Notes: generated from the letters alone by a model not told the origin. A DNA stretch of 64,000 nucleotides from Vulcanimicrobiota bacterium (GCA_963714015.1 OY970223.1:3008001-3072000), one strand, 5' to 3'. Numbered from the stretch's first letter, positions 38,794-56,935 are shown. Numbers and translations: made by a program.

Positions 38794-39172
38794 TATTTTC
38801 TATAAGCCGCAGCCGGTTTCCGAACGGATCCAGCAGTTGCATCATTCGGCCCCAAGACTCTTTTTTAATGGCCGGACAACCGGGCGGTTTGGCGCCCAGC
38901 TCCGCCTGCAATGCATCTAGACCAGTCATGTGCACAAGCGAAGTCGAGCCCGGCGTTGCATCCCCGTAATGCTCGGAAAGATGAACGGTTAAGCCGTTCC
39001 GCGAGACTTGCATATACAGCGGTAGCCCTGGTTCAAAGCGATGCTCCCAATCGACCGTGCAGCCCAGATAGTCGATATAGAATTCCTTTGCTTTGTCGAT
39101 ATCGAATATCCGGAAGATCGGAATCGTCTTTGAAAATGTTGCAACGGCGGTATCGGCTGTCGAAGTGTTCAT
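38783..39172 (-). CDS. Glyoxalase/bleomycin-resistance (VOC) protein
   Basis: PIFRIFD, VDWEHRF, HLSEHYGD, DPFGNRL. Confidence 0.88.
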   Translation of the reverse strand: MNTSTADTAVATFSKTIPIFRIFDIDKAKEFYIDYLGCTVDWEHRFEPGLPLYMQVSRNGLTVHLSEHYGDATPGSTSLVHMTGLDALQAELGAKPPGCPAIKKESWGRMMQLLDPFGNRLRLIENIDG

Positions 39173-40605
39173 TAGGTGTGATCTCCGTGCATCAGCGGCC
39201 CTTCCACGGGGATACCGTCGAGCAGATGCCCGAGTTTTGCGCGCTTCGTTGCGATATACCGCTTGTTGTGTGCCGTCGGTTCGGTCTGCATCGGAACCCG
39301 TCCGACGATCCGTATCCCATAGCCTTCGAGCCCAAAGATTTTACGCGGGTTATTGGTAAGGACGCGCATCTCCTTAACGCCTAAGTCGGCCAAAATCTGC
39401 GAACCGATTCCGTAATCCCGTTTGTCCACCGGCAGCCCGAGCGCGAGGTTGGCTTCCACCGTATCGGCCCCCTGATCTTGCAGTTGATACGCTCGCAGTT
39501 TGTTGGCCAGGCCGATGCCGCGCCCTTCCTGACGCAAATACAGAAAAATGCCGCGCCCTTCTTTGGCGATGATTTGCATTGCCCCGTCGCGCTGGGCGGC
39601 GCAGTCACAACGCAGCGAATGGAGCGCGTCGCCGGTCAAACATTCGGAGTGAACGCGCACCAGCAAATCTCTGCCGTCGCCGATCTCACCCATGACGAGT
39701 GCGACATGCGTGTTGCGGTCGATGGAATTTTCAAACGCGTAGCCCCGCCACGTTCCGATTTCGGTCGGCAATTGAAACTCCGCGATGCGATGCAGCAGTT
39801 TCTCCGTGCGCCAACGGTATGCAATGAGATCCTTGACCGTAATAAGCCGCACGCCGTGCTTCTTGGCAAAATCGATTAGGCCGTCCAGCCGCTCCATCGT
39901 GCCGTCTTCCGCCATGATCTCGCAAATTACGCCCGCGGGATACAATCCGGCGAGCCGTGCCAGATCGACCGCCGCTTCGGTTTGACCGGCGCGAACCAGC
40001 ACGCCGCCCTCGCGAGCACGCAGCGGAAAGGTGTGACCGGGTCGCAGCAGATCCGACGGACGTGTTGCCGAATCGAGCAGCGCTTGAATCGTCGCCGATC
40101 GATCGTGTGCCGAAATTCCTGTCGTCGTGCGCCCGCGCGCTTCAACCGAAACGGTGAACGCCGTTTCGTGCACGGCGCTGTTTTCGGAAACCATTTGCGG
40201 CAAATGGAGCTCGTCGAGTCGCCGGCCCGTCATCGGAACGCAGATCAAACCGCCCGCGTACTTGCGCATGAAGTTGATAGCTTCGGGCGTGACCATCTGC
40301 GCGGCCATAACGAGGTCGCCTTCGTTTTCGCGATCCTCGTCGTCGAGCACGATGACCATCTTGCCGGCACGAACGTCTTTGATCGCCTCCTCAATCGAGT
40401 CGAAAGGCGATGCCTTTTCCAGCGAATTGGTCAGGTCGGGCAAGACCTGAGTCAGCCGCTGCAAAGAGCGGTAGGACGGCTCACGCTGCCCGGACCGAAG
40501 GTACGAAATCGCAGCCTCCGTTAGCCCGCTGCGCTCAGCCAGGTCCGCGGCGTTAAGGCCTGCGGCTTCCATAGCCGTATTCAATTCCTCAGCAAAGGGA
40601 CTCAC
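39172..40605 (-). CDS. ribBA: XRE-HTH domain fused to bifunctional DHBP synthase/GTP cyclohydrolase II
   Basis: DDEDRENEGD, RVHSECLTGD, CDC, QEGRGIGL, LTNNPRK; N-terminal ~60 aa LAERSGLTEAAISYLRSGQREP. Confidence 0.95.
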   Translation of the reverse strand: MSPFAEELNTAMEAAGLNAADLAERSGLTEAAISYLRSGQREPSYRSLQRLTQVLPDLTNSLEKASPFDSIEEAIKDVRAGKMVIVLDDEDRENEGDLVMAAQMVTPEAINFMRKYAGGLICVPMTGRRLDELHLPQMVSENSAVHETAFTVSVEARGRTTTGISAHDRSATIQALLDSATRPSDLLRPGHTFPLRAREGGVLVRAGQTEAAVDLARLAGLYPAGVICEIMAEDGTMERLDGLIDFAKKHGVRLITVKDLIAYRWRTEKLLHRIAEFQLPTEIGTWRGYAFENSIDRNTHVALVMGEIGDGRDLLVRVHSECLTGDALHSLRCDCAAQRDGAMQIIAKEGRGIFLYLRQEGRGIGLANKLRAYQLQDQGADTVEANLALGLPVDKRDYGIGSQILADLGVKEMRVLTNNPRKIFGLEGYGIRIVGRVPMQTEPTAHNKRYIATKRAKLGHLLDGIPVEGPLMHGDHT

Positions 40606-40611
40606 GGGCCC

Positions 40612-40641
40612 AGCTTACGCCGCGAACTTAACAACTGTCAA
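40612..40641 (-). promoter_or_regulatory. Putative leaderless ribBA promoter TTGACA-N18-TAAGCT
   Basis: -35 at 40641..40636 spans the target/IS-end junction; -10 at 40617..40612 lies 6 nt before the GTG. Confidence 0.6.
40631..40638 (+). repeat. 8-bp target repeat ACAACTGT, copy 1
   Basis: Identical copies at 42708, 47243 and 49853, each abutting IS terminal repeats. Confidence 0.9.
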
Positions 40642-40690
40642 GGTAACATACTTGGCTCACCAGGGGCCTGGTGTCTGGTAGGATAGAGAG

Positions 40691-41685
40691 ATGGCCCGCG
40701 CTCGCTTCCACGGTTTGCTTGCGGAGATGGAAGACCGACTCGGCGGAAACTACAATTCCGCGCTCCTCGCAGCCATTCTCGCGGTTGCCCCAATGTTCGT
40801 GGTGGCGATGATTCATTCTGCGCTCGCTTGGCGCTGTCTTGAGTCGTTTTGGGTCGCACTAGTTCTAATTTTGCTAGCACGGGTCTTCCGAGTACAAGTT
40901 CGCGTAGCCCTATTGGGTGGTCTTCTCTGGCTTTGCGGTACGCTGGGCAATTTTTGTGCTACCTCCGGTGTCATCGGGTGAAGTGAGTGCCCCTATTCCC
41001 TATCCAACCCCAATGCTGCAAACATGGGACGGAGTTTACTCTGGTTGGGCAACAGAGCGCGGAGCCAAGTTGCCATACTGGGCGGTAAATCTGTGTCTAG
41101 CCAATTTTGGGAATGAAGATGTCAAGGTAGTGACATACGAGACTTCTAAATTAGATTGGAATTATCGCGACGATCCCACGAAAGTGCGGCCGGTAGTGGA
41201 CAAGATGAGGGCGTCACTCGCTGTTCAAGAGGAAAGGGCGGAACACGCCTGGCCCGAGATTTATCATCCCGATGACCCACGATTACTATCCTGTTCGCAA
41301 AGGTTGGGATATTTCAGAAGACATCCGAGACCATTTTACTGGCACGCACTATATTCAGGTACATTCCGATCACGTAGTAGGGCGCGACGAGCAAATGCAA
41401 ATAATGGCTCAGTACAGAATCCTCTACTACGATGTGGATTTTGTAGAAACGAATTCGCGTGGTATGACCACCTGGAACGCTTGCGGAATCGTGGAGTGGC
41501 AAGGCAGTACAACCCCGTGTCCGGAGGCGGGGGTTAAAAAAGTGAACGACGATATTGACGGCGACGAAGCCATGAGGCGGTTTGAAGAACTCGGGACTAA
41601 ATTGTTCCAAATCAAGAAAGACCACGTTGAGGAAATCACTGAGGGGGAACCTGATGACTACTCGAGCCGGAGCCCGGATGAGTAG
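40691..41685 (+). CDS. Passenger hypothetical membrane protein(s), frameshifted over ORFs 40691..40981, 40917..41537 and 41272..41685
   Basis: Lower-GC overlapping ORFs; 3 TM segments at the N-terminus; exact gene number unclear. Confidence 0.5.
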
Positions 41686-42638
41686 TCCGCAGAGCCGCGT
41701 TCTCGTTCTTCAATTCGCGATAGGTTACGCGCCGTCCGTCCGTATTCTTCAGCACGGCCACGAACCGCTCCGCGTCGTTCCCCTCGCGGGCGTTGAAGCG
41801 GAATACTTGCTCGTCAAGGTAGCGGTCTCAGATGGAACGGACGCGGGCAAATGTAGGTCCCTTTAATGGTCCGCTTCAGGCAGCTCCAGAAGTTCTCGAT
41901 ATTGTTCGTATGCACGCTTTCCGTCAACGTACCGAACCGAGTGGTCAACGAACTTATGCAGGTAGCGAATAGTCCAGCATCCGGTAGGAGCGCAGCGCAT
42001 CGGTGAACACTTGGAACCCGGTTCGACGTTCTGATAAATCTTCGGAAGCAGTACCGCGGCGCGATGGTTCGGAACGACCATAGCCTTCACGCGGCTTTTG
42101 CCTTTTTCTTCGGCGCGTTGCACCATGCCGAACACCGTCGTCTTTCCGGTGCCGGTCCGTGTTTGAGTTTGCGGAAGCCGCTCTTGGAAAAGTAGTTCGT
42201 GCGTACCTTACCGCCGACGAATGTTTCGTCCGCTTCAACTGTACCGGAGAACGCCGCGCCAACGCCGTCTTTCATGGATTCGCGGATGCGATGGAACATG
42301 AACCACGCCGTCTTTTGCGTGACACCCAGGGCGCGGTCCAGTTCACACGACGAGGTTCCGTTCTTCGTGTTTGCCAGGAGCCAAATTGCCGGAAGCCACT
42401 TGGTAAACGAAATCGGACTGTCCTCAAAAATCGTCCCAACCTTGACCGAGAACTGCCGTTTGCACTCTTTGCAGCGCCACATTTTGCGAGTCTTGAGGAA
42501 TTGGACGGACGCCGATCCGCAACCCATGCGCGGGCACGCGATGCCGTTCGGCCAGCGCAATTTAACCGCGTATTCGAACGCCCGCTCGGGGTCCGAGAAG
42601 AAGGTGACTGCCTCGATAAGCGTAGTCGGCGTGTCCAT
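41636..42638 (-). CDS. IS1595 family transposase (several frameshifts)
   Basis: Zn ribbon CPRMGC...CKEC, FSVKVGTIFEDS, GVTQKTAW, VEADETFVGG, TD, NNIENFWS, YLDEQVFRFN. Confidence 0.93.
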
Positions 42639-42707
42639 GCTTTAACGGTATACTCGAGGGTGTTCCACCAGTGTGGCACTGTGAGGTGAGCCAAGTATAT
42701 TAGCTTG

Positions 42708-42715
42708 ACAACTGT
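42708..42715 (+). repeat. 8-bp target repeat ACAACTGT, copy 2
   Basis: Lies between unit 1 right IR and unit 2 left IR. Confidence 0.9.
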
Positions 42716-42780
42716 CAAGATGATATACCTATTGCGGCTTTGCCCATTTCCGGCGAGTTGCACAAAGCGCTAAAGCGTGG

Positions 42781-43185
42781 CTATTGGTGCAGTAGCACGA
42801 TGGCAATCACGGCGTAAAGGCTCAGAACGACGCCACCTAGCGGTATCGCGAGTTTAAGACGAGGATTCGCCGGAACACTGGTCACCCGTGGAAAGGCATA
42901 CGCGAAGTAAGCCCACAGCGCAAGGCTAACGAGTGCTAAAGCAAGGCGCTCAGTCCTTCCAAGCACGGTTAGCCTGTGCACTTTCGGTAATCGATCTGAA
43001 GCCCCCAGATCGCCGATCTCGCATTGCCTGCGCCCAACCTCGTCTTGCAAGCGCAGAGAACGCTCGATCGCGGCCGCCAGGTTATCCTCGGCCTCGGTCG
43101 GCGTCGGCCCAAAGGCCACAATCTCGCGACCTGCGCCCTGCCCCCTGGCGTGGTAGCCGCCCGCAACCTGCAGTAGAGTAGCCAT
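42781..43185 (-). CDS. Hypothetical protein; N-terminus weakly HicB-like, C-terminus 2 TM
   Basis: IVAFGPTPTEAEDNLAAAIE resembles the HicB-type beta-alpha motif; possibly chimeric. Confidence 0.4.
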   Translation of the reverse strand: MATLLQVAGGYHARGQGAGREIVAFGPTPTEAEDNLAAAIERSLRLQDEVGRRQCEIGDLGASDRLPKVHRLTVLGRTERLALALVSLALWAYFAYAFPRVTSVPANPRLKLAIPLGGVVLSLYAVIAIVLLHQ

Positions 43186-43230
43186 GGTCCAAATTATCCC
43201 ACGCCGTAGCGTTACGTGGCAAATAACTTA

Positions 43231-43455
43231 ATGCGGCGGGAAGGCGACCACGCGGAGCGGTTCTATACTGTGCTGAAGAACACGGACGGCCATCGCGTTA
43301 TGTATCGCACCTTGAAGGCGGAAAACCCGAACCTGCGTGTTATGCATCCTCGGATATCTCGCCCGAATCTCGCCCGCGTCGTCCTCGATAATTTCCCGGT
43401 TATCGTCGTTCTTGCGAACGATTTTGCCGAGCAGGGTTTTCGAAGTTCTCCATAG
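43231..43455 (+). pseudogene. IS1595 transposase C-terminal remnant
   Basis: REGDHAERFYTVLKNTDGHRVMYRTLKAENPNLR aligns with unit-1 transposase tail REGNDAERFVAVLKNTDGRRVTYRELKNENAALR. Confidence 0.85.
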
Positions 43456-43479
43456 CCTCGTCGCCGTTTACGTCGTCAT

Positions 43480-44314
43480 TCATAGCAAGTCCAACGCTTC
43501 ATCTGCCAGTTTGCCACCAAGGATTGTCGCCCACGCATCTAGCGCTTTCGCCATGGCTTGTACCGTTTTTGACGTTAATATTTGCCCCGCAATTATTTCG
43601 TGTGTTAGGTCCGTACTGCTTAAGCCATATCTTGACATCATATCGGTAACAATTCTTACGACCTTGGGCCTCACCTTGTCAAATTCGGTATTATCCACGG
43701 TAGTGCTCTCGAGCCATTCCTCAATTATTTCGCGCCCCGTCAGCCCTTTACGCTGCGATTTATGCAGCGTCATGTTATTCACGAACGATTCTAACATTGC
43801 AGAGACGCGCTTTATGCGTGTGTAGTCCGAAGCGAGGGGTGCAATGCGCGACCATTTCTCCGCGCTAATCTGCAAGTCGTTAACCCGCCCCACTAATTTG
43901 TCGTTTTCTAGCGATGCCTCTACCCAGCCATCCGATAACGCATCAGCCTCGGCCTTTAGACCCTCAGTTTTCGTACGCTCCTGTCGGACGATGCTCAATG
44001 GTGTCCTGCAATTTACTTTGGACACCGAGTGACTAAACGAATCAGTAGCCTGCGATGCGGTCGCCGACAAGGACAGGTCCTTTACTTGCGCGTCGTGCCA
44101 CCACAGCAATAGGCCGACCATAAGAAAAAGTGGAGATGAAATCTTGGACTTGCGCCACAAAGTGTCCCAGTTCGGTGTGCGCGTTATAATTCAGCGATGC
44201 CTGGACGGCGTTCTCGTGGTCGATTGCGTCCCATATTCTCCAGGCCCAACCCAGACCAGATATGACGAGCGTTGCAATCGTCGGCCTAGACGGACGCCAC
44301 ACTTTAGAGAACAT
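43480..44314 (-). CDS. Passenger hypothetical membrane/coiled-coil protein (frameshifted)
   Basis: ORFs 44042..44314 and 43480..44160; lower GC; TM segments. Confidence 0.5.
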
Positions 44315-44661
44315 CCAGATCGTTTGCGCCGTGAGCGCGACTGATCATTTTGTGACCCTCGATGAGACCAAGGCTGGACTGAAAAAAGCGCCCTCCTTAC
44401 CCTATTAGGGCATTGGTGCCTCAGGTGGCTTTGCACATCAAAGGGCGGCTGCACATAAAATACGCTGCTTGCACATAAAACCGAGCCGCTGCAATTAGGA
44501 ACAGTTTATTTCGTCCGTACGCTTGCAAAGCATGGTATATTTGCGCCATGTTGCCGCGACGGTGGTCGCGGGCAGGGAGTAAAGGGCTCCCCACCCGCAT
44601 CCTCCATCGGGGACGGTCGGAAGCTCCAGGGGTTCCGATCTCGCGCTCCAGGAGGAAAACT

Positions 44662-44808
44662 CTACTCCGGTTTTGGCGCACGACGAGGTGTGTTCCAATA
44701 CGGACTTTTGCACTTCGGGCAAACCATCGGGTCCTGCGACTTGTCCCGAGGCAGCCATTCGTGCCCGCATCGGTCGCACCGATAGCCGGACAGTTTCACC
44801 TTCGCCAT
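44662..44808 (-). CDS. 48-aa zinc-ribbon protein (not in ORF track)
   Basis: MAKVKLSGYRCDRCGHEWLPRDKSQDPMVCPKCKSPYWNTPRRAPKPE; TTGACG-N18-TATACT promoter 6 nt upstream. Confidence 0.85.
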   Translation of the reverse strand: MAKVKLSGYRCDRCGHEWLPRDKSQDPMVCPKCKSPYWNTPRRAPKPE

Positions 44809-44814
44809 TCCCGT

Positions 44815-44907
44815 AGTATATACCCACTAGTCTCATACCGTCAATATACCCCCTGGTAGGTTGACTCTGCGCTATCCCTTGTGGTATATTCTCTTTAGGA
44901 ATATACG
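44815..44907. promoter_or_regulatory. Divergent sigma70 promoters with repeated ATATAC(C) motifs
   Basis: Minus: TTGACG(44844..44839)-N18-TATACT; plus: TTGACT(44861)-N18-TATATT; GTATATTC-N7-GAATATAC palindrome at 44884..44906. Confidence 0.7.
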
Positions 44908-44920
44908 AAGGGGTACGAAG

Positions 44921-46141
44921 ATGGAAGCACGGGAACAGCGCGGGCTCGAAATCGCAGCCACCAAGAAACTCGAAAAGTCCGGCCAGAAGTGGCTTGTCCC
45001 ATCCTCCACCGGATCGGGCACGTACGTTGTCGATCCCACCGTCTACGGGCCGGCGACCTGCACTTGTCCCGACTACGAGCTGCACCAAGAGCCGTGCAAA
45101 CACGTCTACGCGGTCGAGTTTACGATCCGACGCGAAACGACGGCCAAGGACGGTACCGTGACGACCGAAACGATCACGTACCGCCAGGAATGGGCCGCGT
45201 ACAATGCGGCACAGGGCAATGAGAAGGTCCGCGTTGCGGAGTTGCTTCGCGAACTGTGCGGCGCAATCGACAACCCACTCCAAAAGCGCGGTCGTCCGCG
45301 TCTGCCGCTCTCCGATCGCGATCTTCTGCGCCGTGATGAAGGTTTACGGCGGAATGTCCGCCCGCCGCTCGGCTTTGCGACCTGAACGACTTTGCCGCTC
45401 GCGGCTTCATCGACAAAGCGCCGCACTTCAATTCCGTTCTCAACGCCCTCGAAAATCCCGATGTAACGGCCATCCTCAAGAACATGATTGAGGAAAGCGC
45501 CGCTCCGCTCGTGACGCTGGAAACGGACTTTGCGGCCGATTCCTCCGGCTTCACGCCCACGACCTATGCCCGGTGGTTCGACGCGAAGTACGGGCGCGAA
45601 ATGACCAAGCACCATTGGCTCAAGGCGCATATCACCGTCGGAACCCGCACGAACATCGTTACGGCGGTCGAAGTCACGGACTACAACGTCCACGATTGCC
45701 CCGTACTGCCCGACCTGCTCAACACGACCGCCAAGCGGTTTACGATGGAGCGCGTTTCGGCCGATAAAGGCTACCTGTCCGATGCGAACGTCCGCGCTAT
45801 CCACTCGCACGGCGCGGTCGCCTTCATCCCGCCGAAAGTCCAACAGCCGTTTCGGCCCCATGCCCGACGCAAGCCGCAAGCGTTCCGACGTATGGCACAA
45901 AATGTTCCACTACTACGCTTTCAAGCGCGACGAGTTTCTGCGCCATTACCATCGGCGGAGCAACGTCGAAACGACATTCCACATGATCAAATCCAAGTTC
46001 GGCAGCCGTATCCGCTCGAAAACGCCTATCGCGCAGACGAACGAAGTTCTCGCGAAGGTCCTGTGCCACAACCTGTGCGTACTCGTTCAGTCCGCGTATG
46101 AACTCGGGATCGAATCGACGTTCTGGAAGCAAACGGCGTGA
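44921..46141 (+). CDS. Transposase: N-terminal SWIM zinc finger plus DDE_Tnp_1-like core (frameshifts near 45315, 45375, 45838)
   Basis: CTCPD...CKH (SWIM); FAADSSGF, ADKGY, YHRRSNVETTFHMIK (D-D-E, YREK-like). Confidence 0.9.
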
Positions 46142-46169
46142 CAGGTCTGAGGTCTTTGGAGGTCCCGAC

Positions 46170-47021
46170 ATGATCCCTATAATCCTGGTGCTAGCCATGG
46201 GTAGTACACCAACCGCGGCTTACGATTTGCCAAGGATCGAGCACCGGTACGCTATAGCCGAAGATAATCAGCGCGATCCCCAAACCCGCAACACCGCCGC
46301 CCAACATTCGGCGGCGAGGGAGCAGATCAACACCAACCCACAGGACTGCTCCTCCGCCGACAATCAAAACACAGCACAGTGCGAGGACGCTAAGAATAAC
46401 CAAAGAATCGCTGTCGCAAACGAGCACATGGTTACTCTCACTATTGTTATCGCTGCTGTTGGCGTTATGCAAACGCTTGCTCTCGTTCTTACGTTGGTAG
46501 CCACCCGAAAGGCGGCGAACGCTACGGCTAAGAGCGTTGACCTTTCCGAACGGTCGCTGAAGATCACTGAGCGTGCACACCTTCAGGTGAGCCAGATTGA
46601 GGTGCGGAGCGGCTTGACGAGTGGGAACATCCCCCGGATCGTAGTGTCGATTGCGAACCGAGGAAGGACACCAGGAACTATAGTAAGCAGTGTTTTTAAA
46701 TTTCAAATCTTCGACACAATTCCAGAATCGCCAACCTTTGATGGCGAGACTCCCAATCAGGTTTTGGTTGGTCCTGGGAACACCGAGACGTCCGATATTA
46801 TGACGCAACACGCCGTCACAACGGACGAGATCGAAGCGATAAAGGCTGCGAAAAAGCAGTTGGTCGTCTGGGGCAGAGTGTTCTATCTCGACGTGTTCGG
46901 GGACCGCCACGAAATGCGGTTTGGGTGCGCGATGAAAATGCACGATCATACCCCGGGCACTCAGGACTATAGGGTGACGTTCAAACAGTTGGTTGGTGAA
47001 GATTACAATCGGGCCGACTAA
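46170..47021 (+). CDS. Passenger hypothetical membrane-anchored protein
   Basis: GGAGG RBS, signal-like N-terminus, one TM, beta-rich C-terminus. Confidence 0.7.
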   Translation: MIPIILVLAMGSTPTAAYDLPRIEHRYAIAEDNQRDPQTRNTAAQHSAAREQINTNPQDCSSADNQNTAQCEDAKNNQRIAVANEHMVTLTIVIAAVGVMQTLALVLTLVATRKAANATAKSVDLSERSLKITERAHLQVSQIEVRSGLTSGNIPRIVVSIANRGRTPGTIVSSVFKFQIFDTIPESPTFDGETPNQVLVGPGNTETSDIMTQHAVTTDEIEAIKAAKKQLVVWGRVFYLDVFGDRHEMRFGCAMKMHDHTPGTQDYRVTFKQLVGEDYNRAD

Positions 47022-47117
47022 CGCGAGAGCAGGTATTTTTCCGGTATGCTGAACTTGCGAACCGACCGCTCTTGAGCCATGCCCTGCGGTAACGGGTTGA
47101 CGCTCACGGGCTACGGA

Positions 47118-47144
47118 GGGGATCGGGGAATCCGGTCCCCTTTT
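47118..47144 (+). terminator. Intrinsic terminator inside the IS right end
   Basis: GGGGATCGG-GGAAT-CCGGTCCCC-TTTT. Confidence 0.65.
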
Positions 47145-47242
47145 CGTTTGCTGAGAGGCCGCACATAAAATCGGCAGGCTGCACAAAAAACACGCCCCCA
47201 GGAGCAATAAATGTGCAAAGCCGCCTCAGGTATATCATCTTG

Positions 47243-47250
47243 ACAACTGT
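47243..47250 (+). repeat. 8-bp target repeat ACAACTGT, copy 3
   Basis: Lies between unit 2 and unit 3 IRs. Confidence 0.9.
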
Positions 47251-47304
47251 CAAGGTACCGTACCTAAGGCGGCTTTGCACAAAAAGGCACTTTTGGGGCT
47301 GCTT

Positions 47305-47570
47305 TTATATGTTGAGCAGGTCGGGGAGTACGGGGCAATCGTTGACGTTGTAGTCCGTGACTTCGACCGCCGTAACGATGTTGGTACGGGTTCCGACGTT
47401 AACATGCGCCTTGAGCCAATGGTGTTTGGTCATTTCGCGCCCGTACTTGGCATCGAACCAGCGGGCATACGTCGTGGGCGTGAAGCCGGAAGAATCGGCA
47501 GCGAAGTCTGTTTCCAGGGTCGCGAGCGGAGCGGCGCTTTCCTCAATCATTCTCTTGAGGATGGCCGAAG
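47305..47570 (-). pseudogene. Fragment of a second SWIM-DDE transposase copy
   Basis: AILKRMIEESAAPLATLETDFAADSSGF...CPVLPDLLN, near-identical to about 45470..45723; adjacent to IR GGCGGCTTTGCAC at 47268. Confidence 0.9.
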
Positions 47571-47591
47571 TGCGACCAGCGCTGCAGCCAG

Positions 47592-49268
47592 TTACGCGCT
47601 TGGCAGTGTCTGCAATGGTGAAGTCAGCGTAAGCAGCGCGTATGCGCTGCCGGTGCGATACGTGAGAAGTGCAAGCGTTTCGGTCTCTTCCGGCAAGTAA
47701 TGCGTGCGATCGCGCTTGGGACCACAGATGACAAAGCCGATAAGTTCCGCACGCGCGGTCATCGGCAGCAGCAGTGATCCACGCAATGGATGTGCGGGCT
47801 CGTCGCATTCGAACGGTTCGTGCCAACGCCGCAAACGCAGCACTGCAAAATCGTGAGACGGCAGAATGGAAGGTGTGGGGGCGCTTGGCGTCGCGAGCGC
47901 ATACGCCGACCCGTCGGCCGTGTAGATCGCGACGAAGTCGCTCTCGAGGCGTTGACGCAGCGCCTCGTATGTCTGCAACAACAAGTATTTCGGGTCTGAA
48001 ATAAGGTCGGTCTCCTGCGCGAAGCGCCGTAACGCTTGCATCGCCGCCGTTTGCGAACGGAAGATGATTCGGTTGAGGAATCCTTCGATACGGCGATGAG
48101 CATGCGTGAGGACGACGCCGATGAATACCGCGAGCAGCAACTCCGCGGCGAGAGCGAAACGTGACTCTTCGAGCCATCTGCCGAAGCCCCAATCCACCAG
48201 AGCGAGCAGGGCGATCGTGATTGACGTGATGGTACCGTACAACAGTGCGCGGCTGACCACGAATCGGATGTCGAACAAGCGGTGGCGCAGGATCGTGTAG
48301 GCCAAGGCAATCGGCGCGAGCAGCATCCACGCTTGTGCAAGGTTGATATACGAAACTTCCGCGTAAATGCCGAACATGGGCGCGAGAATATTGTCGATGA
48401 CGATCGAGGGTAAAAACGCGACGGCGAAGGACAGCACAACCCAGCGCAGCCGATTACGGCGCGCTTCATCAGCCTGAACGTATCTGGCGATCAAAATCAC
48501 GATGGCGACGACGTAGATGCTGTTGAGCACGGCGCCGTACACCGTCCAATACGCGGTCGGAGCTCGCGCTCCGGAGACCACCAGCACGACCATCGGAATC
48601 AGCAAGGCAAGCCATACCGCGGGCACAAAAAACGCGATGAGCGCACGTTCGAGTAGCGCTCCGGCGCCGCGCGGCGTTGAATCGGGAAACCGCAGCGCGA
48701 ACGAGACAAAGCCAGCTGCCGATGCCGGAAGCGCAATCGACACGATGAGAGTGACGAGATACTGGGCCGCAGGGTATTCGAGAATCAGTGTGCCGACGAG
48801 GCAAAAGTTGTAGAGAAACGCGTAAAAGGCCCACGTGACGGGGCTCGGCCGGAAGAGCACGAGCGCGGCGGCGAGCAAAATGGCCGCCCACAGTGATACT
48901 ACCGCGATATAATCCGTGACGTTGTCGATGGCCGTTCGACCGAACGGATGCGAACGTAATGTCACGAGCCTGCCCGAACTGAGCGGAAGAGTTATAACGG
49001 CTCCGTCGGGTGCACCGGCATCGTAGCCCAGCGTTAGTGAGGCGCGACCGGTGGGGGATAGGCGACGCATGTCGATGACGTCACCGGCCCGCAAGCCTGC
49101 TCTCGATGCTTGCGCATCCACCGAGGTAATGTAACCGTTCTGCCCCGCGCCAAAGCCGTATGTCGAATACGGATGCCAGGGCAGAAGCAGATCTCCGCCG
49201 TTGGCGAGCAGCGAAGCGGCGGTAAGAACGACAATGAAGACAGTCCGGATGACTGCCCGCGTGTCCAT
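47592..49268 (-). CDS. Multi-pass membrane sensor-like protein (PDZ-like loop, C-terminal GAF-like domain)
   Basis: ASRAGLRAGDVI, multiple TMs, AYTILRHRLFDI, LIGFVICGPK...YLPEE. Confidence 0.75.
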   Translation of the reverse strand: MDTRAVIRTVFIVVLTAASLLANGGDLLLPWHPYSTYGFGAGQNGYITSVDAQASRAGLRAGDVIDMRRLSPTGRASLTLGYDAGAPDGAVITLPLSSGRLVTLRSHPFGRTAIDNVTDYIAVVSLWAAILLAAALVLFRPSPVTWAFYAFLYNFCLVGTLILEYPAAQYLVTLIVSIALPASAAGFVSFALRFPDSTPRGAGALLERALIAFFVPAVWLALLIPMVVLVVSGARAPTAYWTVYGAVLNSIYVVAIVILIARYVQADEARRNRLRWVVLSFAVAFLPSIVIDNILAPMFGIYAEVSYINLAQAWMLLAPIALAYTILRHRLFDIRFVVSRALLYGTITSITIALLALVDWGFGRWLEESRFALAAELLLAVFIGVVLTHAHRRIEGFLNRIIFRSQTAAMQALRRFAQETDLISDPKYLLLQTYEALRQRLESDFVAIYTADGSAYALATPSAPTPSILPSHDFAVLRLRRWHEPFECDEPAHPLRGSLLLPMTARAELIGFVICGPKRDRTHYLPEETETLALLTYRTGSAYALLTLTSPLQTLPSA

Positions 49269-49344
49269 CCTCGCAGAACTTCGTGCTCCGACATACCTTC
49301 CCCGCTGCGCAGGAATCGCGCTTTCCGCAACGTCGCCGGCGCGA

Positions 49345-49790
49345 GAGTAGAGCGATACGCACGGGGCGATCGTCGGCGATATTCCCAACACGCCGGGCGT
49401 GCACGGCATCGCACTTGCACCCGAACTCGGCAAGGGCTTTACGTCGAACGGTTCCGACGGCGCGGTAACGGTGTTCGATTTGAATTCGCTCAAACCCATG
49501 ACGACGATTCAAACGGGTGCCAAGGGGCCGGACGGCATCGTGTACGACCCCGCCAATAAGCGCGTGCTGACGTTCAACGGCGAGAGCAACGACGCGACCG
49601 CCAGCGACGCGCAAAACGACCGCGTCGTGGCGACGATTCCGCTTGGCGGACGACCGGAGTTTCCTGTCGCGGACGGCAAAGGCATGGTGTACGACAACAT
49701 CGAGAGCACGAGCGAAATCGTCGCGATTGACACGTCGAGCGCGGCAATCGTCGATCGCCGGAGTTTGGGAAGTTGCCAAAGCCTGTCGGG
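49345..49790 (+). pseudogene. YncE/YVTN beta-propeller gene fragment
   Basis: GVHGIALAPELGKGFTSNG, PDGIVYDP, GGRPEF; no signal peptide and truncated before the IR. Confidence 0.75.
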
Positions 49791-49852
49791 CAAACCCATT
49801 CGAGGCCTCGCCTTGGCAGCCTCGGTCAAGGTGAGTCAGGTATATCACCCCG

Positions 49853-49860
49853 ACAACTGT
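49853..49860 (+). repeat. 8-bp target repeat ACAACTGT, copy 4
   Basis: Followed by another IR-like end CAAAGTGGCCGTACC-TGA-GGGGCTTGCACAT (unit 4, right end not found). Confidence 0.88.
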
Positions 49861-49976
49861 CAAAGTGGCCGTACCTGAGGGGCTTGCACATGAATCGACG
49901 CTTGCAATAAAATCGAGCCGCCGCAATGAAGGCGAGAATGCCACCCGTGTGGCGCCGTTCCGAGTAGTATTTTCCC

Positions 49977-50255
49977 ATGAACCTAGAAACGGGAGCGGTC
50001 CTTTTAGCGCAGATGCAAGCCGACGGCGGAAGATATCGCAATAAGGCGGTTGTCAATGCGGTGCGCGCTGCCGTTGCCATCGTCGTCTGGTTACTGCACG
50101 CGGGCGCCTTCAGCAGCATTGCCTTTTTCATATTCGTAATCTGCGGGTACCTTACGCTGTCAAACTTGGAGCAGTGGAACATCACCAGGCGGCAACAAGA
50201 GTCTGTTGCTCTAGTTATCCTCGGCACAAGTATTTGCGTTTGCGGCGCTCGATGA
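49977..50255 (+). CDS. Small hypothetical membrane protein (possibly frameshifted)
   Basis: 92 aa, hydrophobic. Confidence 0.35.
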   Translation: MNLETGAVLLAQMQADGGRYRNKAVVNAVRAAVAIVVWLLHAGAFSSIAFFIFVICGYLTLSNLEQWNITRRQQESVALVILGTSICVCGAR

Positions 50256-50519
50256 ATATTGCAGCAGCTTGTTTCGGGTGCGCAAAGGATCGGCAAACCC
50301 ATCCCTCTTCCGGACCCGTGGATTGAACGTGCCAATTCCCCGATGAGAAAGCGAGCGAACGGCTTGCTCGCCTGGTCGTTCATCCTTTCACTGGCAATGG
50401 TAGTGTTCCGCCGTCAGCTTCCTAAACTCGGCCCGTTGCCTAGAGTATTTTGTGTCGCTTCCTGCCCTGGCGGGAAGCATGACAACCTGTATTCGACGGT
50501 TCAAGGCCACGGAGACGAA

Positions 50520-51620
50520 GTGTATAAAGCAAAAGCATACGCCGCGGAAACGGCATCATCCGCGCTCACATTGACGACGATACCGCGGCGAGATCTCACG
50601 CAAAACGACGTTCAGATCGAGATATTGTTCTGCGGCATCTGCCATTCGGATTTGCACACAGTGCGCGACGAGTGGGGCGGAACGGTTTACCCGGTCGTTC
50701 CGGGTCATGAAATCGTCGGACGCGTCACAAATGTCGGCTCGGCGGTCACTGCTTTCAAGCCAGGCGATCTTGTGGGCGTCGGATGCCTAGTCGACTCCGA
50801 CGGCACGTGCGAACAGTGCCGCGCCGGCTACGAGAATAATTGCCCGAACCGGGTGCTTACTTACAATTCGTCCGATACGTACCTTGGGGATGTTACCTAC
50901 GGCGGCTACTCCGAGAGCATCATCGCCGACGAACGCTTCGTTCTGCGCATCCCGGAAAATCTTGATATAGCGGGCGCGGCACCGCTGCTATGCGCGGGGA
51001 TCACGACATACTCGCCGATGCGCCATTGGGGCGTCAAGGAAGGTCAGAAAGTCGGCGTTGTCGGGCTGGGCGGTCTCGGTCACATGGGCGTCAAGTTCGC
51101 ACGCGCGTTCGGCGCGCACGTCGTTGTCTTCACCACCTCGCCCAACAAGAAAGACGACGCGCTGCGCCTCGGGGCGAACGACGTGGTGGTTTCGCGAAAT
51201 GCAGACGAGATGCAAGCCCATGCGAACACTTTTGACTTCATCTTGGACACCGTTTCAGCGCAGCACAACATCGACGCATATCTGGAGCTGCTTGCACCGA
51301 ACGGCACCTTGGTCTTGGTCGGCGCTCCGCCGGAGCCGTTGAGCGTGTCTGCATTCAGCCTCATTGCAGGGCGCCGCAGTCTTGCAGGCTCCAATATCGG
51401 TGGAATCCGCGAAACGCAGGAAATGCTTGACTTTTGCGGACGGCACAATATCACGTCGGACGTCGAGGTCATCTCAATTCAAGACGTCAACGACGCTTAC
51501 GAGCGGATGGCCAAATCCGATGTGAAGTACCGCTTCTCGATCGATATGGCGACGCTGAAATCACAGAGTGCTGAAGACGACTCAACAAAGAAGCGCCTAT
51601 CCGAAGCGCATTCTCGGTAG
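50520..51620 (+). CDS. NAD(P)-dependent zinc alcohol dehydrogenase (cinnamyl-alcohol dehydrogenase/YahK type)
   Basis: CGICHSD, PGHEIVG, PLLCAGIT, GLGGLGH, DVKYRF; GTG start with GGAG. Confidence 0.93.
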   Translation: MYKAKAYAAETASSALTLTTIPRRDLTQNDVQIEILFCGICHSDLHTVRDEWGGTVYPVVPGHEIVGRVTNVGSAVTAFKPGDLVGVGCLVDSDGTCEQCRAGYENNCPNRVLTYNSSDTYLGDVTYGGYSESIIADERFVLRIPENLDIAGAAPLLCAGITTYSPMRHWGVKEGQKVGVVGLGGLGHMGVKFARAFGAHVVVFTTSPNKKDDALRLGANDVVVSRNADEMQAHANTFDFILDTVSAQHNIDAYLELLAPNGTLVLVGAPPEPLSVSAFSLIAGRRSLAGSNIGGIRETQEMLDFCGRHNITSDVEVISIQDVNDAYERMAKSDVKYRFSIDMATLKSQSAEDDSTKKRLSEAHSR

Positions 51621-52040
51621 CAGCCCGTGACGGACACTCTCGTCGCGGCAGGTTGTGGTAGAGCCCGCCTGCCCCTCGCTTGATGAGGGCGTTAGCACGC
51701 CTGGCAGTAGAGTGACAAGGCGCGTTTAGTGTTCTGCGATGCGGGTACTCGACCTTCAGAAAAATGGAGCCCCGCCCCCGTGATAAACAGCCTCCTCCTT
51801 TACGCGATCGGATCGCTCATCTCGCGACCGATTTAGATTCACTTTCCCGCGCGATACACGAAGAGCTGGACTGGCGCGAAAAGCTCGAGCCTGAACCGGC
51901 GGACGACAACGACAACGGCTAGTACGCCAACGTTCCCGCGTCCAGAACGATCCGATGGTCCCGACTGCGTTGATTACTGCGGCTCGATAAGGTGTTTCTT
52001 TATCGTAGTACGGCCGGTTTGAATGGGTACACGCAGCAGC

Positions 52041-52661
52041 ATGGCAGATAAACAGCACAGTTTGGCGACATACCTGAGCGATATGCTCGCGCTTGAAGAA
52101 CACATCCGCATTCCGATCACGGTTCAGGCCGAAGACGCGGACTTCGCGGTGTTCACGAACGCCGCCGCGCTGATAACGCGCCTGAGCGCCCTTTGCGAAA
52201 CGCACATCCAAACGATAAAAAGTGCGCTTGAGGCGAGCGGCGGTCATGAACTCGCCGGCGCAAAATCGGTCGTGACGAACATCGAGGGGTGGTTCGCCGG
52301 CGCGATCGACAAAATGAGGAGAACGAAAGTCGCCAAGGCACTTCGGGACGACTACACCGCGCTCGCATTGTGCGCCGTCAGCTACAGCATGCTGATCTCG
52401 ACCGCAAACGTATGTGGCGACGCTCGCGTGAGTGAACTGGCGCAGCGGCATCTTCGCGATTATGCGGAACTCATTTGGCAGATCGGCGACATCCTGCCGG
52501 GCATCGTCGTCGAGGATTTGCGCGCGCTCGGCCTGCCGCTGCAAGAAGGCACCGCGGAGCTGACGCGGCGGCAGATCGCCGATGCGTGGCACCGCCCAAC
52601 GACAATCGAAAACGAAGCGGCGCTCAACCGCGGGGCGTCCGCGTCTTACCCGACGGCGTAA
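52041..52661 (+). CDS. Ferritin-like four-helix protein (DUF892-like)
   Basis: DMLALEEH, CETHI, KALRDDY ExxH-type helices. Confidence 0.7.
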   Translation: MADKQHSLATYLSDMLALEEHIRIPITVQAEDADFAVFTNAAALITRLSALCETHIQTIKSALEASGGHELAGAKSVVTNIEGWFAGAIDKMRRTKVAKALRDDYTALALCAVSYSMLISTANVCGDARVSELAQRHLRDYAELIWQIGDILPGIVVEDLRALGLPLQEGTAELTRRQIADAWHRPTTIENEAALNRGASASYPTA

Positions 52662-52670
52662 CGCGGACGG

Positions 52671-53678
52671 TTACTGAAACAGCGAAGGATCGAACGTCAC
52701 AATCGGCTTGAGAATCTGCGAACTTCGTAGGGCGGCGTAGGCTTGCGCGGCTTCCTCGAGCGGATACAGCGTTGCGCCCAATCGCTGAGCCGTGACCACC
52801 CCGCGGCCGATCAAATCCAAGGCCTCGCGCGTATCTTGCGGTCCGCAAGAGTAACTCGGCACGAGTTTGACGTCCCGAAAATAGAGATCGTTCGGATCAA
52901 AAGTGAAGGGCACACCGGGTTCGAGCGGGGTAAACATGATCGCGGTTCCGCCCGGCAGAGCCGCGGCGGCGGCGTTGCGCAGCGCGTCGGGCGATCCCGG
53001 TCCGCAGATCACGACGTCCGCTCCTGAAAAATGCTCGTCCGGACGAATCACGCGCACGCCGAGCGTACTAGCAAATCCGCGCCGTTGCTCGATGAAATCG
53101 CTTCCCGAAACCTGCGCGCCGCGAGCAAGGCCGACCAGCGCATGCATTAATCCCATAACGCCCAAACCGATGACGTGCATGCTGTCGCCGTCGCGCAAGC
53201 CGCTGCGTCGAATCGACTTTACGACACAGGCCAGTGGCTCCACGAGTGAGGCATCGACGAATGAGACGTTTTGCGGGAGCCGTAGAGTGTCGCGCACGTT
53301 TTCGGACGGTACGCGAAAGAATTCGGCAAGGCCACCCGGATCGATCGACGTTTTTCGCCACGTGGCACACTGCACGTAATCGCCGCGAGAGCATGCCCGG
53401 CAATCGAAGCACGGCGCATGATGATGCACGAAGACGGGATCCCCCACGCTGAACTCGGCAACACCGCTCCCGGTCCCGACGACCACGCCGGAGGGCTCGT
53501 GCCCGAGCACCAGCGGCGCTTTACGCCGCACGTACCAAGCCATGACGTCGCCGGTGCAAATGCCGCTGGCGCGCGTCTGCACGAGAAGTTCACCAGGGCC
53601 GAGCTGCGGAACCGGGCGCTCCTCCACGCGGATATCATCGACGTCGTAAAGGACTGCCGCGCGCATTGTCTGCATCAC
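52671..53678 (-). CDS. Zinc-binding dehydrogenase (MDR family)
   Basis: GICTGD, LGHEPSG, CFDCRAC, EPLACV, GLGVMG. Confidence 0.9.
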   Translation of the reverse strand: MMQTMRAAVLYDVDDIRVEERPVPQLGPGELLVQTRASGICTGDVMAWYVRRKAPLVLGHEPSGVVVGTGSGVAEFSVGDPVFVHHHAPCFDCRACSRGDYVQCATWRKTSIDPGGLAEFFRVPSENVRDTLRLPQNVSFVDASLVEPLACVVKSIRRSGLRDGDSMHVIGLGVMGLMHALVGLARGAQVSGSDFIEQRRGFASTLGVRVIRPDEHFSGADVVICGPGSPDALRNAAAAALPGGTAIMFTPLEPGVPFTFDPNDLYFRDVKLVPSYSCGPQDTREALDLIGRGVVTAQRLGATLYPLEEAAQAYAALRSSQILKPIVTFDPSLFQ

Positions 53679-54700
53679 GGCTCGATCGCGAATTTTATTC
53701 CTTCGCCGCTATCCAAGCGAGCGAAGACCGAAGCGATGTCGTCGAGTGGAACCGTCGCCGTGATAAGCGGTCGCGGATCCAGCGCGCCGCCGGAAAGCAG
53801 TTCGTACGCTTCTCGAACTGCGCCGGTCGTAAAATGGAACGGACTGATCAGCCGAACTTCGTCATAATGCAATCGCGCGGCCGAAAAGGAAACGCGAGCG
53901 TCGCCCGGCAGTCCGCCGAAGAACGACACCGTGCCCCCGCGCCGTACCAGCGCCGGTGCGCGTTCCCACACCTCGGGACGCCCGGTACACTCGATCAGCG
54001 CGTCGACGCCACGCCCTTGCGTCATCGCGAAAAGCTCGGCCTGTACGTCACATTCGCGCGTATTCAACGTCGCGCCGATGCCTAGCCATTGCGCCAGTTC
54101 GAGCCGCTCGCTGCGGCGGCCGCAAAGAACGGCGCGAGCGCCCCGCCGCTCCAGCAGCATCGCATGCAAAATTCCGAAGCCGCCGTCGCCCATGACGGCG
54201 ACCACGCTTCCAGGCAGCGGATTCAAAAAAGAAACCGAGTGAACGACGCAGGAGAGCGGCTCCAAAAATGCCGCAGCCGCATATGAAATCTTCGCCGGTT
54301 TGCGAAAACAATTGCGGCGCACGATGTGTGACGGCACCTCGATGAACTCTGCATACGCGCCGAGGATCTTGGTCGACATTACCGATTCGCACAGCTCCTC
54401 CTCACCGCGCGCACACCAGAAGCAGTTACAGCAGGGAGCCGAGTGAACGCACATCACCGCTTCGCCTGCGGTGAATACGGTAACGCCTTCGCCCACAGCC
54501 GCGACGTCTCCGGAAAACTCGTGGCCGAACGGCGTCGGCATGGGCATCTGCGGGTGTCCGCGACGGAATGCTTTCAAATCGGTGCCGTCAGTGAGCGCCG
54601 CGCGCACGCGCACCACGATGCCGCCGGGCGGAGCCGCCGGTGTCGCAACCTGCCGCAGCTCGACGCGGCCCGGCTCCACGAGAATCGCAGATCTCATCAC
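53675..54700 (-). CDS. Zinc-binding dehydrogenase (MDR family)
   Basis: TDGTD, FGHEFSG, CCNCFWC, EPLSCV. Confidence 0.9.
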   Translation of the reverse strand: MMRSAILVEPGRVELRQVATPAAPPGGIVVRVRAALTDGTDLKAFRRGHPQMPMPTPFGHEFSGDVAAVGEGVTVFTAGEAVMCVHSAPCCNCFWCARGEEELCESVMSTKILGAYAEFIEVPSHIVRRNCFRKPAKISYAAAAFLEPLSCVVHSVSFLNPLPGSVVAVMGDGGFGILHAMLLERRGARAVLCGRRSERLELAQWLGIGATLNTRECDVQAELFAMTQGRGVDALIECTGRPEVWERAPALVRRGGTVSFFGGLPGDARVSFSAARLHYDEVRLISPFHFTTGAVREAYELLSGGALDPRPLITATVPLDDIASVFARLDSGEGIKFAIEP

Positions 54701-55143
54701 GCCAGACATTCTCGCAGTGCGCTGCGCATCGGCGGCGGGAGGGGCCGGCTTTTGTGCGATCGTCTATCCATGCATGCGACCACTAAGTGAAACGCCGCTC
54801 CGGCGGCGTTGGTGCGTTCGTTGTGCACGACGGTCAGCCATTTGATCGACGAAGCTCCAACGTGCCGGATGTGCGTGCGCAGCGTCAGCCAGTCACCCAT
54901 CAGCGCGGGATTGTGATAGTCGGCCTCCACATGCACGCGCGGCAGCCAAATGTCGTACTCTTCGAAGACCGTGTTGTATGGAAAGCCCAGCTCGCCGAAA
55001 AAATCCATTTCTGCGCGCTCGACGGCGCGCTGATATGCCGCGAAGTACATGATCCCGGCGATGTCGATGTCGGCCCACTGCACCATCACGCGCGTCTCGA
55101 AGATCCGCGCACCCTCCGGTGTCGTGTCTTTAAACTTGGGCAT
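54697..55143 (-). CDS. Acyl-CoA thioesterase (hotdog, 4HBT-like)
   Basis: VQWADIDIAGIMY motif. Confidence 0.85.
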   Translation of the reverse strand: MPKFKDTTPEGARIFETRVMVQWADIDIAGIMYFAAYQRAVERAEMDFFGELGFPYNTVFEEYDIWLPRVHVEADYHNPALMGDWLTLRTHIRHVGASSIKWLTVVHNERTNAAGAAFHLVVACMDRRSHKSRPLPPPMRSALRECLA

Positions 55144-55720
55144 GGACCGCATACCGCGCGATTGGGTCGACTTCCAAATTCACTGAATCCCCCGGCTCCC
55201 GCCGCCCCAGCGTAGTGCGCTCGAGTGTTTCGGGAATCAAGGCGATCTCGAACCAAGTGTCGGCCACATTCGCTACCGTGACGCTGACGCCGTCAACGCT
55301 GATGAACGCCTTCTCACACACGTACCGCCGCAACGCCGCCGGTAAAGCGACGCGCATGCGTTCGCCTTGTCCTTCGGGCGTGCGCGAAAGCATTTGTCCG
55401 GTAGCATCGACATGGCCGTACACGAAGTGGCCCCCCATGCGGTCGCCGAGCCTGAGCGAATACTCGACATTGACCACGTCGCCTTCGCGCAGCGAGCCCA
55501 GATTCGAACGCGCCAGCGTTTCGGGAACGACGTCGAAGTCCACGATGTTGTGATCGACGCGCGTTGCCGTCAAGCAGACGCCGTTGACTGCAATCGAATC
55601 CTTCGGTTCAACTTCTTCCTCCGATGCATTCTCGCAGCGCAAGGTCAACGTAAGGCCGCCGCCATGCACCGGCGTAATGCGTTGAACCTTTCCCGTATAA
55701 GCGATGAGCCCGCTAAACAT
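55130..55720 (-). CDS. ribE: Riboflavin synthase alpha chain
   Basis: MFSGLI, SIAVNGVCLT, GGHFVYGHVD, VNLEVD. Confidence 0.95.
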   Translation of the reverse strand: MFSGLIAYTGKVQRITPVHGGGLTLTLRCENASEEEVEPKDSIAVNGVCLTATRVDHNIVDFDVVPETLARSNLGSLREGDVVNVEYSLRLGDRMGGHFVYGHVDATGQMLSRTPEGQGERMRVALPAALRRYVCEKAFISVDGVSVTVANVADTWFEIALIPETLERTTLGRREPGDSVNLEVDPIARYAVHAQV

Positions 55721-56810: not shown

Positions 56811-56935
56811 CGATCTACCTCCAAATATTGCGCCTAGTCCGGTTTCCGGCCTTGTCCGGTGCGCGGTGCCGGTATTCCGACATTTATCGGGCTCGAGGCA
56901 AGCGACGCGTTCTGCCGTGTCGAACGCGCCGAGCC

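Follow-up and report, generated by a model that had tools for sequence, protein, structure and literature searches.

A tandem array of IS1595-related units at a palindrome upstream of the HTH-ribBA gene in a Vulcanimicrobiota bacterium

The stretch of DNA analyzed here (hereinafter, the window) comprises 64,000 nucleotides from the genome of a Vulcanimicrobiota bacterium (GCA_963714015.1 OY970223.1:3008001-3072000). It contains a gene for RibBA fused to an XRE-type helix-turn-helix (HTH) domain and, beginning 25 nt upstream of the GTG start codon of this HTH-ribBA gene, an array of four tandem units that are elements of the IS1595 transposon family or derivatives of such elements. The units, numbered outward from ribBA, are separated by copies of a single 8-mer, ACAACTGT, and lie in the gap between ribBA and ribE (see Table 1 for the coordinates).

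As stated in a first-pass annotation made from the sequence alone, the four copies of ACAACTGT have the same orientation (plus strand); dinucleotide-preserving shuffles of the window contain 0.64 copies on average, and none of 100 shuffles reached four. Genome-wide (3.56 Mb in one contig, both strands), the 8-mer occurs 21 times, with repeat-like flanks at the four copies of the array only, and no part of the array sequence is repeated elsewhere in the genome. Every copy of the array is the center of a palindrome, for example, GGTATATCATCTTG-ACAACTGT-CAAGGTACCGTACC. The unit sizes given by the same annotation (2069, 4527 and 2602 bp; the fourth unit is open-ended) are correct, and within the window, identical 8-mers flank units 1, 2 and 3 on both sides. 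Units 1 and 2 are each bounded by a matched pair of inverted repeats (40627-40661 and 42685-42719, 35 nt, 86%; 42701-42749 and 47209-47257, 49 nt, 86%, respectively); the two ends of unit 3 match one another more poorly than those of units 1 and 2. The claim that each copy abuts related repeats thus holds around the units but not to the left of the leftmost copy, where the flank is native DNA (CTTA) that contains no repeat.

The family assignment comes from unit 1. The product of its transposase gene contains a zinc ribbon (PF12760; E 1.6e-12, 47.6 bits against a cut-off of 25.4) followed by a DDE domain, PF12762, pieces of which score below the cut-off when single frames are searched (19.7 and 20.4 bits); in the scan of the genome, this domain reaches 30.4 bits against a cut-off of 27 and is the sole PF12762 match. 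When 11 full-length relatives of the transposase, drawn from a search of 1.84 billion representatives, were used as tblastn queries, the matches in the window were confined to 41687-42641, with 35-45% identity over approximately 270-330 aa, frame changes notwithstanding. In the assembled sequence, the reading frame of the gene shifts three times or more, which may reflect either real decay or read errors. In unit 2, only a short remnant of the transposase C-terminus was found with the L141 transposase as the query (23 of 46 residues identical, E 1e-7; relatives are referred to here by such locus designations), and its region shows about 71-77% DNA similarity, in inverted orientation, to positions 41676-41788 of unit 1. 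Units 3 and 4 yielded no IS1595 transposase in tblastn searches with the full-length relatives. Hence, the description of the units as IS1595-type is accurate as far as family membership or derivation is concerned, but a recognizable transposase is found in unit 1 only, with a remnant in unit 2.

To delineate the ends of the elements, we fetched 80 loci that encode relatives of the transposase, 48 of which have a good repeat pair; the elements at these loci measure 2.0-3.5 kb, and their repeats are similar to GGCAATAATATACTTGACTCACC. With the element tip placed 9 nt outside the ATACTTG box of the repeat, a perfect 8-bp direct repeat flanks 40 of the 48 elements. The repeats in the window have the same geometry, with an ATAC(T/C)T box located 9 nt from the C of CAAG. 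Judged by this family geometry, the tip of the window elements appears to be CAAG and the 8-mer appears to be the target duplication, in accord with the original proposal. That proposal had counted unrelated 8-mers next to related IS1595 copies as evidence against it. Such 8-mers are indeed the rule among the IS1595 relatives in general, where they show a high AT content, in many cases a palindromic sequence (CTAATTAG, GTTTAAAC, CAAATTTG), and no relationship to ACAACTGT, whereas the specificity is confined to one clade.

The wider relatives (L025-L104) favor 8-bp targets that resemble C-T-A-A-T-T-A-G. Some of these targets are the exact centers of longer perfect palindromes, as in L046 (GAAACCGTTTAAACGGTTTC) and in L066/L078 (TGTCCTAATTAGGACA), and the base immediately outside the duplication often equals the element tip (GG).

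In the window, the target is not merely the 8-mer, although the regenerated near-palindrome is indeed reused as the annotation had suggested, but a conserved 16-bp palindrome, CTT(A/T/G)ACA-NN-TGTCAAG, that is located between ribE and ribBA. The HTH-ribBA fusion is present in all 31 related genomes that were searched, and TT(A/T/G)ACA-NN-TGTCAAG was found at the same place in 10 of 11 related loci (at most 3 mismatches to the search template), the sequence in L023 being more diverged. The palindrome overlaps the predicted ribBA promoter such that the insertion point falls between the TTG and the ACA of the -35 box. Of 27 oriented loci, 26 contain TTGACA and 21 contain TAnnnT at a distance of 16-19 nt; in 19 of these 21, the start codon is located 6 nt past the TAnnnT hexamer, so that the HTH-ribBA promoter is apparently leaderless. 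The half-site within the promoter spacer (TGTnAAG) is likewise conserved, that is, both halves of CTTGACA-NN-TGTnAAG are kept, which suggests that the palindrome is also an operator, possibly, that of the fused HTH domain; should that be the case, a riboflavin gene would be autoregulated by its own enzyme fusion.

The comparison of the regions upstream of ribBA in related genomes, which had been recommended at the outset, revealed empty sites, single copies and a variable number of units. In L018, L019 and L021, the palindrome is present without an adjoining repeat box. A search of 401 genomes of the phylum with the end pattern CAAGRTRATATACYT returned 31 matches in 27 genomes, compared with about 16 for the reversed control; within the family to which the window belongs, 21 of 296 genomes were matched. 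Among the 29 distinct hits, ACA-NN-TGT is exact in 21, most of them at the 5' end of ribBA, and near-exact in 3; the five hits lacking it are L125 and four loci outside the family (L105, L128, L129 and L131). When 151 genomes of the family were searched with the tip-neutral pattern TTNACANNTGTNNNNNNGATATAC, 12 of them yielded a total of 20 matches, whereas the reversed control yielded none. Thus, at least 12 of these 151 genomes have an occupied palindrome in the ribBA promoter, and the insertions recur at orthologous positions, as is characteristic of site-specific transposons.

Complete elements at the ribBA site are flanked by identical 8-mers on both sides in seven of seven cases, as well as in G180. 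The 8-mer is ACAAATGT in L135 (2.15 kb), L138 (2.96 kb), L141 (2.23 kb) and G180 (0.87 kb), ACAGATGT in L142 (2.17 kb; the same sequence as L026 and counted once), and ACAACTGT, as in the window, in L147 (2.05 kb). Locus L143 (G076) holds a 58-bp mini-element that consists of the two ends only, with the duplication, ACAGTTGT, intact. In L146, a 2.4-kb element flanked by TCAGTTGT is followed by a second left end; this locus and L025 are further tandems at the site. A degenerate mini-element with unequal 8-mers, L120, was excluded from the scoring as too decayed. In L136 (G202), two left ends are located 37 nt apart.

The seven transposases encoded at the ribBA site form a single clade with an SH-like support of 0.992 (82 sequences, FastTree, midpoint root; 3 of the 80 loci were dropped because the open frame was shorter than 290 aa). 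This clade includes the N-terminal fragment from the window as well as L025 and L026. The intact transposases, those of L138, L141, L142, L146 and L147, share 61-90% identity. Each complete element also carries one reading frame of 292-366 aa that is convergent with the transposase gene. The five of these passenger proteins that were compared belong to no Pfam family, have Atlas matches to hypothetical clusters only, and resemble neither one another nor any sequence in the window or among the 80 family loci.

The element tips differ between the two sides of the site. At the junctions with a native TTA flank that were recovered in the tip-neutral search, the tip is CAAG in seven of seven cases; the proximal tip of L025 is CAGG, and the far-end tips are GGGG, CGGG, CCGG, CTAG or CAAG. 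CAAG is found beside ribBA irrespective of whether the transposase gene reads away from ribBA (L135, L138, L141, L146 and L147) or toward it (L142 and unit 1 of the window); the transposases of L141 and L142 are 85% identical. The simplest reading of this pattern is selection, whereby only proximal tips that restore TTGACA would keep ribBA expressed. Quasi-palindrome correction and short-patch conversion were weighed as possible origins of the CAAG tip but dismissed, given that neither predicts CAAG beside a CTTA flank.

Taken together, these findings make it probable that a site-specific clade of IS1595 elements with cargo repeatedly uses, and rebuilds, the promoter palindrome of HTH-ribBA. 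Under this scenario, a clade of the IS1595 family (with a DDE transposase containing an N-terminal zinc ribbon and one passenger gene per complete copy) would have become site-specific. The transposase would cut the target with an 8-bp stagger, so that ACA-NN-TGT is duplicated. On the ribBA side, the duplicated ACA joined to the tip CAAG (CTTG on the gene strand) reads TTGACA, and hence the tip and the duplication together would rebuild the -35 box and the entire palindrome, the native CAAG doing the same at the far end. Because both new junctions hold the full 16-bp palindrome, the target would be copied rather than consumed; with the landing pad copied and the ribBA promoter kept, new elements could insert again. 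At least four insertions are envisaged for the genome in question (units 1 to 4, each with ACAACTGT), followed by unequal decay, in which the ribBA-proximal unit would have decayed least. In this single array, the distribution of transposase sequences, with most of the gene in unit 1, a remnant in unit 2 and none in units 3 and 4, fits insertion at the ribBA side, with the older units pushed outward, although we infer this order rather than observe it.

The most serious competitor of this history, albeit an improbable one, is that the stack does not stem from four separate insertions; instead, several units would have been transposed together as a composite, or a few elements and host DNA would have recombined, with deletions and inversions. 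The contents of the outer units provide the arguments for it. Unit 2 contains an internal, degenerate left-end-like block, so that this unit may represent two fused units, along with a frameshifted remnant of an unrelated transposase, part of which (258 nt, 92%) is present as an inverted copy in unit 3 (47310-47567) and has no further copy in the genome. The left repeat of unit 3 resembles that of unit 2 and the right repeat resembles that of unit 1, and given that the two belong to different unit types, this unit may be a chimera. Unit 3 further includes a fragment of a beta-propeller gene (49351-49878) that shares 75% identity with another genomic locus and a gene for a multi-pass membrane protein with at least 20 paralogs in the genome (tblastn). 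The match of this protein to the GAF domain is below the cut-off (E 0.03), and its Atlas score is 0.98 to hypothetical GAF clusters that are most common in Vulcanimicrobiota. Accordingly, the cargo does differ from unit to unit, as originally claimed, but the content of units 2 to 4 is in part a decayed transposase, the remnant of another insertion sequence and stretches paralogous to host genes. The chimeric appearance of unit 3 and the shared inverted piece indicate that the array was rearranged at a later stage, and the unequal 8-mers of L025 suggest that composites can move. Nevertheless, the four 8-mers are identical and co-oriented, which fits repeated use of a local target, and the ends of unit 1, like those of unit 2, form a matched repeat pair of their own. 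Moreover, a history of this kind would alter neither the kind of element nor the target.

One class of unit ends contains 2-4 direct copies of GC(T)TGCACATAAAA spaced by about 20 nt. Such blocks are located at 44427-44493, 47157-47211 and 49880-49925 in the window and were also detected in L014, L136 and L145. Two of the blocks include sites with promoter-like scores that point inward (44432-44461 and 49885-49913), the second of which lies just upstream of the two plus-strand cargo genes of unit 4. The blocks may bind the transposase, act as promoters of the cargo, or do both.

Table 1. Features of the array in the ribE-ribBA gap and of the adjacent genes
Feature	Position	Strand	Evidence and remarks
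HTH(XRE)-RibBA fusion gene	39172..40605	-	GTG start at 40605; Pfam HTH_3, DHBP_synthase, GTP_cyclohydro2
Predicted ribBA promoter	40612..40641	-	TTGACA (40641-40636), 18-nt spacer, TAAGCT (40617-40612), 6 nt, GTG
Junction 1	40627..40642		native half CTTA, ACAACTGT (40631-40638) and unit 1 tip CAAG; ribBA-proximal copy of the 16-bp palindrome
Unit 1, IS1595-family element, 2069 bp	40639..42707		terminal repeats 40639-40661 and 42685-42707
Passenger DNA of unit 1, ~1 kb	40662-41630		reading frames without Pfam match
Decayed IS1595 transposase of unit 1 (zinc ribbon and DDE)	41639..42641	-	Pfam, tblastn
Junction 2	42708..42715	+	target copy common to units 1 and 2
Unit 2, non-autonomous, 4527 bp	42716..47242		terminal repeats 42716-42752 and 47206-47242, with GGCTTTGC(A/C)CA subterminal motifs
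IS1595 transposase C-terminal remnant in unit 2 (46 aa)	43213..43341	+	tblastn, L141 query
Degenerate left-end-like block in unit 2	44404..44493	+	GC(T)TGCACATAAAA motif present three times; 37 nt match the left end of L014 at 92%
Unrelated transposase remnant in unit 2, frameshifted	44831..46141	+	Pfam; SWIM zinc finger and DDE_Tnp_1
Junction 3	47243..47250	+	target copy common to units 2 and 3
Unit 3, 2602 bp	47251..49852		left repeat unit 2-like; right repeat (tip CGGG, ...CTCACC) unit 1-like
635-aa multi-pass membrane protein, cargo of unit 3	47592..49499	-	weak GAF-like C-terminus
Junction 4	49853..49860	+	target copy between unit 3 and open-ended unit 4
Unit 4, open-ended	49861..52040		left repeat and subterminal motifs at 49861-49925
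92-aa membrane reading frame in unit 4	49977-50255	+	
Zinc alcohol dehydrogenase in unit 4	50259-51620	+	Pfam
ribE, upstream neighbor	55130-55858	-	Pfam Lum_binding
ribD, upstream neighbor	55713-57044	-	Pfam RibD_C, deaminase

No right end of unit 4 was found before a conserved block common to the relatives that starts at about 52041, and the limit of the unit was set there. Between this point and ribE (52041-54709), the window contains two zinc-dehydrogenase genes and a 278-aa reading frame. These genes are found at the same place in several genera (L014, L015, L017, L018 and L023) and are lacking in L019, L022 and L024; they are older arrivals in the same gap between ribE and ribBA. As shown by the synteny in relatives, the ribD, ribE and ribBA genes were adjacent ancestrally. 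The ribE-ribBA gap spans 14.5 kb in the window, 15 kb in L014 (a member of the same genus with different content), approximately 0.1 kb in L024, 0.65 kb in L019 and L022, and 2.7-8.6 kb in five other loci.

Several observations weigh against the scenario of repeated site-specific insertion. The transposase is present in unit 1 only and is broken in this assembly; with this gene frameshifted and with no intact gene in units 2 to 4, the window contains no autonomous element. The genome scan detected neither another IS1595 DDE domain nor, outside the array, another repeat-like end, so that the search for additional copies in the same genome that had been suggested at the outset came back empty and the mobility of units 2 to 4 at present is unsupported. 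The ends of unit 3 are of different types and its content is partly paralogous to host genes, that is, rearrangement contributed to the array. The first element of the L025 tandem is flanked by reverse complements (ACAGTTGT and ACAACTGT) rather than by direct repeats; the tandem may have moved together as a composite. Among the 48 wider relatives, 8 lack a clean duplication (2 mismatches in two, 3 in three, and 7-8 in three).

At the ribBA locus of many relatives (L014, L015, L016, L017, L024, L136, L139, L140, L145 and L149), only the ribBA-proximal repeat is present. A search of up to 20 kb identified no convincing partner for such solo repeats, and in many relatives, they are directly followed by cargo. 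The large number of solo proximal repeats implies that deletion and rearrangement are common at this locus, much of the content of which is not traceable to clean insertions. The function of the promoter is predicted from conservation; a scan for sigma-70 promoters did not list the ribBA site because TAAGCT matches in only 3 of 6 positions. Furthermore, 15 of the 27 promoter loci and most of the complete elements were retrieved with a CAAG-containing pattern, the TTNACANNTGTNNNNNNGATATAC search alone being tip-neutral, and the related genomes are metagenome-assembled and do not represent independent samples.

The first-pass annotation also raised the alternative that the elements end in TGT...ACA and are joined by a 2-bp AC spacer, as in the case of IS30-type junctions. 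A 2-bp AC duplication would be a variant of this parse, and the true ends would then lie 3 nt further out. The window alone is compatible with both parses because ACA and TGT are present in the native site and in every junction. The central dinucleotide differs among genomes, but single elements have identical dinucleotides on their two sides, an outcome that a 2-bp duplication would produce as well. Nonetheless, we consider this parse to be very unlikely. In 40 of the 48 relatives, the duplication begins exactly 9 nt from the ATACTTG box, whereas a TGT end would correspond to 12 nt; the 8-mer of L146 begins with T on both sides of the element (TCAGTTGT), a variant that is explained by duplication of the first base but not by a fixed element end; and transposases of the IS1595 type do not belong to the IS30 family.

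Marginally less plausible still is the possibility that the junctions are sites of a site-specific recombinase (integron-, Xer- or serine-like, with a central 2-bp crossover) and that the units are cassettes that integrated as circles. Such an explanation could account for palindromic junctions with a non-palindromic center that all have one orientation in the window, for the common core of the native and hybrid sites, which is reminiscent of att sites, and for the two sites of L025, which differ by the inverted center only. However, a Pfam search covering 49 reading frames of the 39-54 kb region detected no integrase or recombinase domain, in agreement with the earlier view that the array was built without an integrase. 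Moreover, the complete units at the site encode a DDE transposase the relatives of which produce 8-bp duplications, and the L146 variant of the 8-mer is duplicated on both sides.

Finally, an assembly artifact of a repeat-rich region is hardly credible even though there is a single assembly, the frame changes in the transposase gene are possibly read errors, and a single public run (X1, soil metagenome, contigs only) contained window sequence, at 7% of the sampled words: the units are not mutual copies and the region is unique in the genome, leaving little for an assembler to confuse, analogous junctions are present in at least 12 other genomes, and a 184-nt contig of X1, which could be the source sample itself, crosses junction 4 with 1 difference. 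The other matches of this run to the window were short and exact, apart from a low-depth contig that skips 48103-49180 (85% threshold; 13 differences on one side) and probably comes from a paralog.

With site-specific insertion of IS1595 elements as the preferred explanation, a more far-reaching proposition can be formulated, namely, that this DDE lineage has produced a functional counterpart of the integron that needs no recombinase, with a self-renewing landing pad in the -35 box and probable operator of a leaderless HTH-ribBA gene, cargo-bearing elements tolerated there solely because their tip restores the promoter, and genes lined up in the order of arrival, throughout the family. We regard this generalization as doubtful at present. 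In its boldest form, the fused HTH domain of RibBA may bind each regenerated palindrome and thus tie the stack to a regulator of riboflavin genes.

If the preferred explanation is valid, one clade of the IS1595 family displays strict chromosomal site-specificity, and because the tips of its elements rebuild the target, insertion would be indefinitely repeatable, with genes piled up at one address. An essential vitamin gene would be kept expressed by an element that supplies half of its -35 box, making this a mobile element shaped by the promoter in which it lands. The system provides a testable handle on genome plasticity in a phylum of uncultured soil bacteria, and a single-protein, sequence-specific DDE insertion system might be worth characterizing.

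Among the known systems with comparable features, IS30-family elements target palindromic hot spots and their own inverted repeats, with a 2-bp junction spacer and duplications of 2-3 bp. The array resembles these in the palindromic target, which is similar to the end-to-end junction of the elements themselves, and in the tandem arrangement; it differs in that the transposase is of the IS1595 type and the duplication is 8 bp long, so that these are not IS30 junctions.

Integron cassette arrays are similarly composed of short units with different genes in a row, and in the window, the unit nearest the fixed site looks the youngest. Unlike integrons, however, the array has no IntI tyrosine recombinase, attI, attC or Pc, and its units are bounded by transposon repeats and 8-bp duplications; the term integron-like that was originally applied to it is therefore apt as an analogy only. 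The attC sites have an R''-L''...L'-R' architecture with a GTTRRRY core; inspection by eye of the junctions and unit ends, with no attC model run, revealed no such core, and the junctions consist of split transposon repeats around ACAACTGT.

The nearest analog in behavior is Tn7, which inserts at attTn7 downstream of glmS, a safe site next to a housekeeping gene that is not inactivated, where different elements can stack into an island. The machinery and the geometry differ: Tn7 employs TnsABC together with TnsD, generates a 5-bp duplication and recognizes the glmS coding sequence at a distance, whereas the elements described here appear to rely on a single DDE transposase and to insert into the recognized palindrome itself, within the -35 box, which is restored by the element tip.

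The IS1595 elements are usually regarded as simple insertion sequences with loose target choice, although the family includes subgroups with passenger genes, such as the 'transporter IS' of the ISNwi1/ISPna2 type. The array shares with this family the zinc ribbon and the DDE_Tnp_IS1595 domain, the terminal inverted repeats, which are some 25 bp long and contain the box ATACTTGAC, the 8-bp duplication (with L025 as the exception) and a size of 2-3.5 kb that includes extra genes. Full-text searches of the literature listed no work on IS1595 elements that are site-specific or arranged in tandem. Whereas the wider relatives use a variety of AT-rich, frequently palindromic 8-mers as targets, the clade at the ribBA site is distinguished by a single chromosomal promoter palindrome, CAAG tips and tandem piling. 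Thus, the elements upstream of HTH-ribBA are best described as a site-specific variant of the known IS1595 family that probably rebuilds its promoter target.

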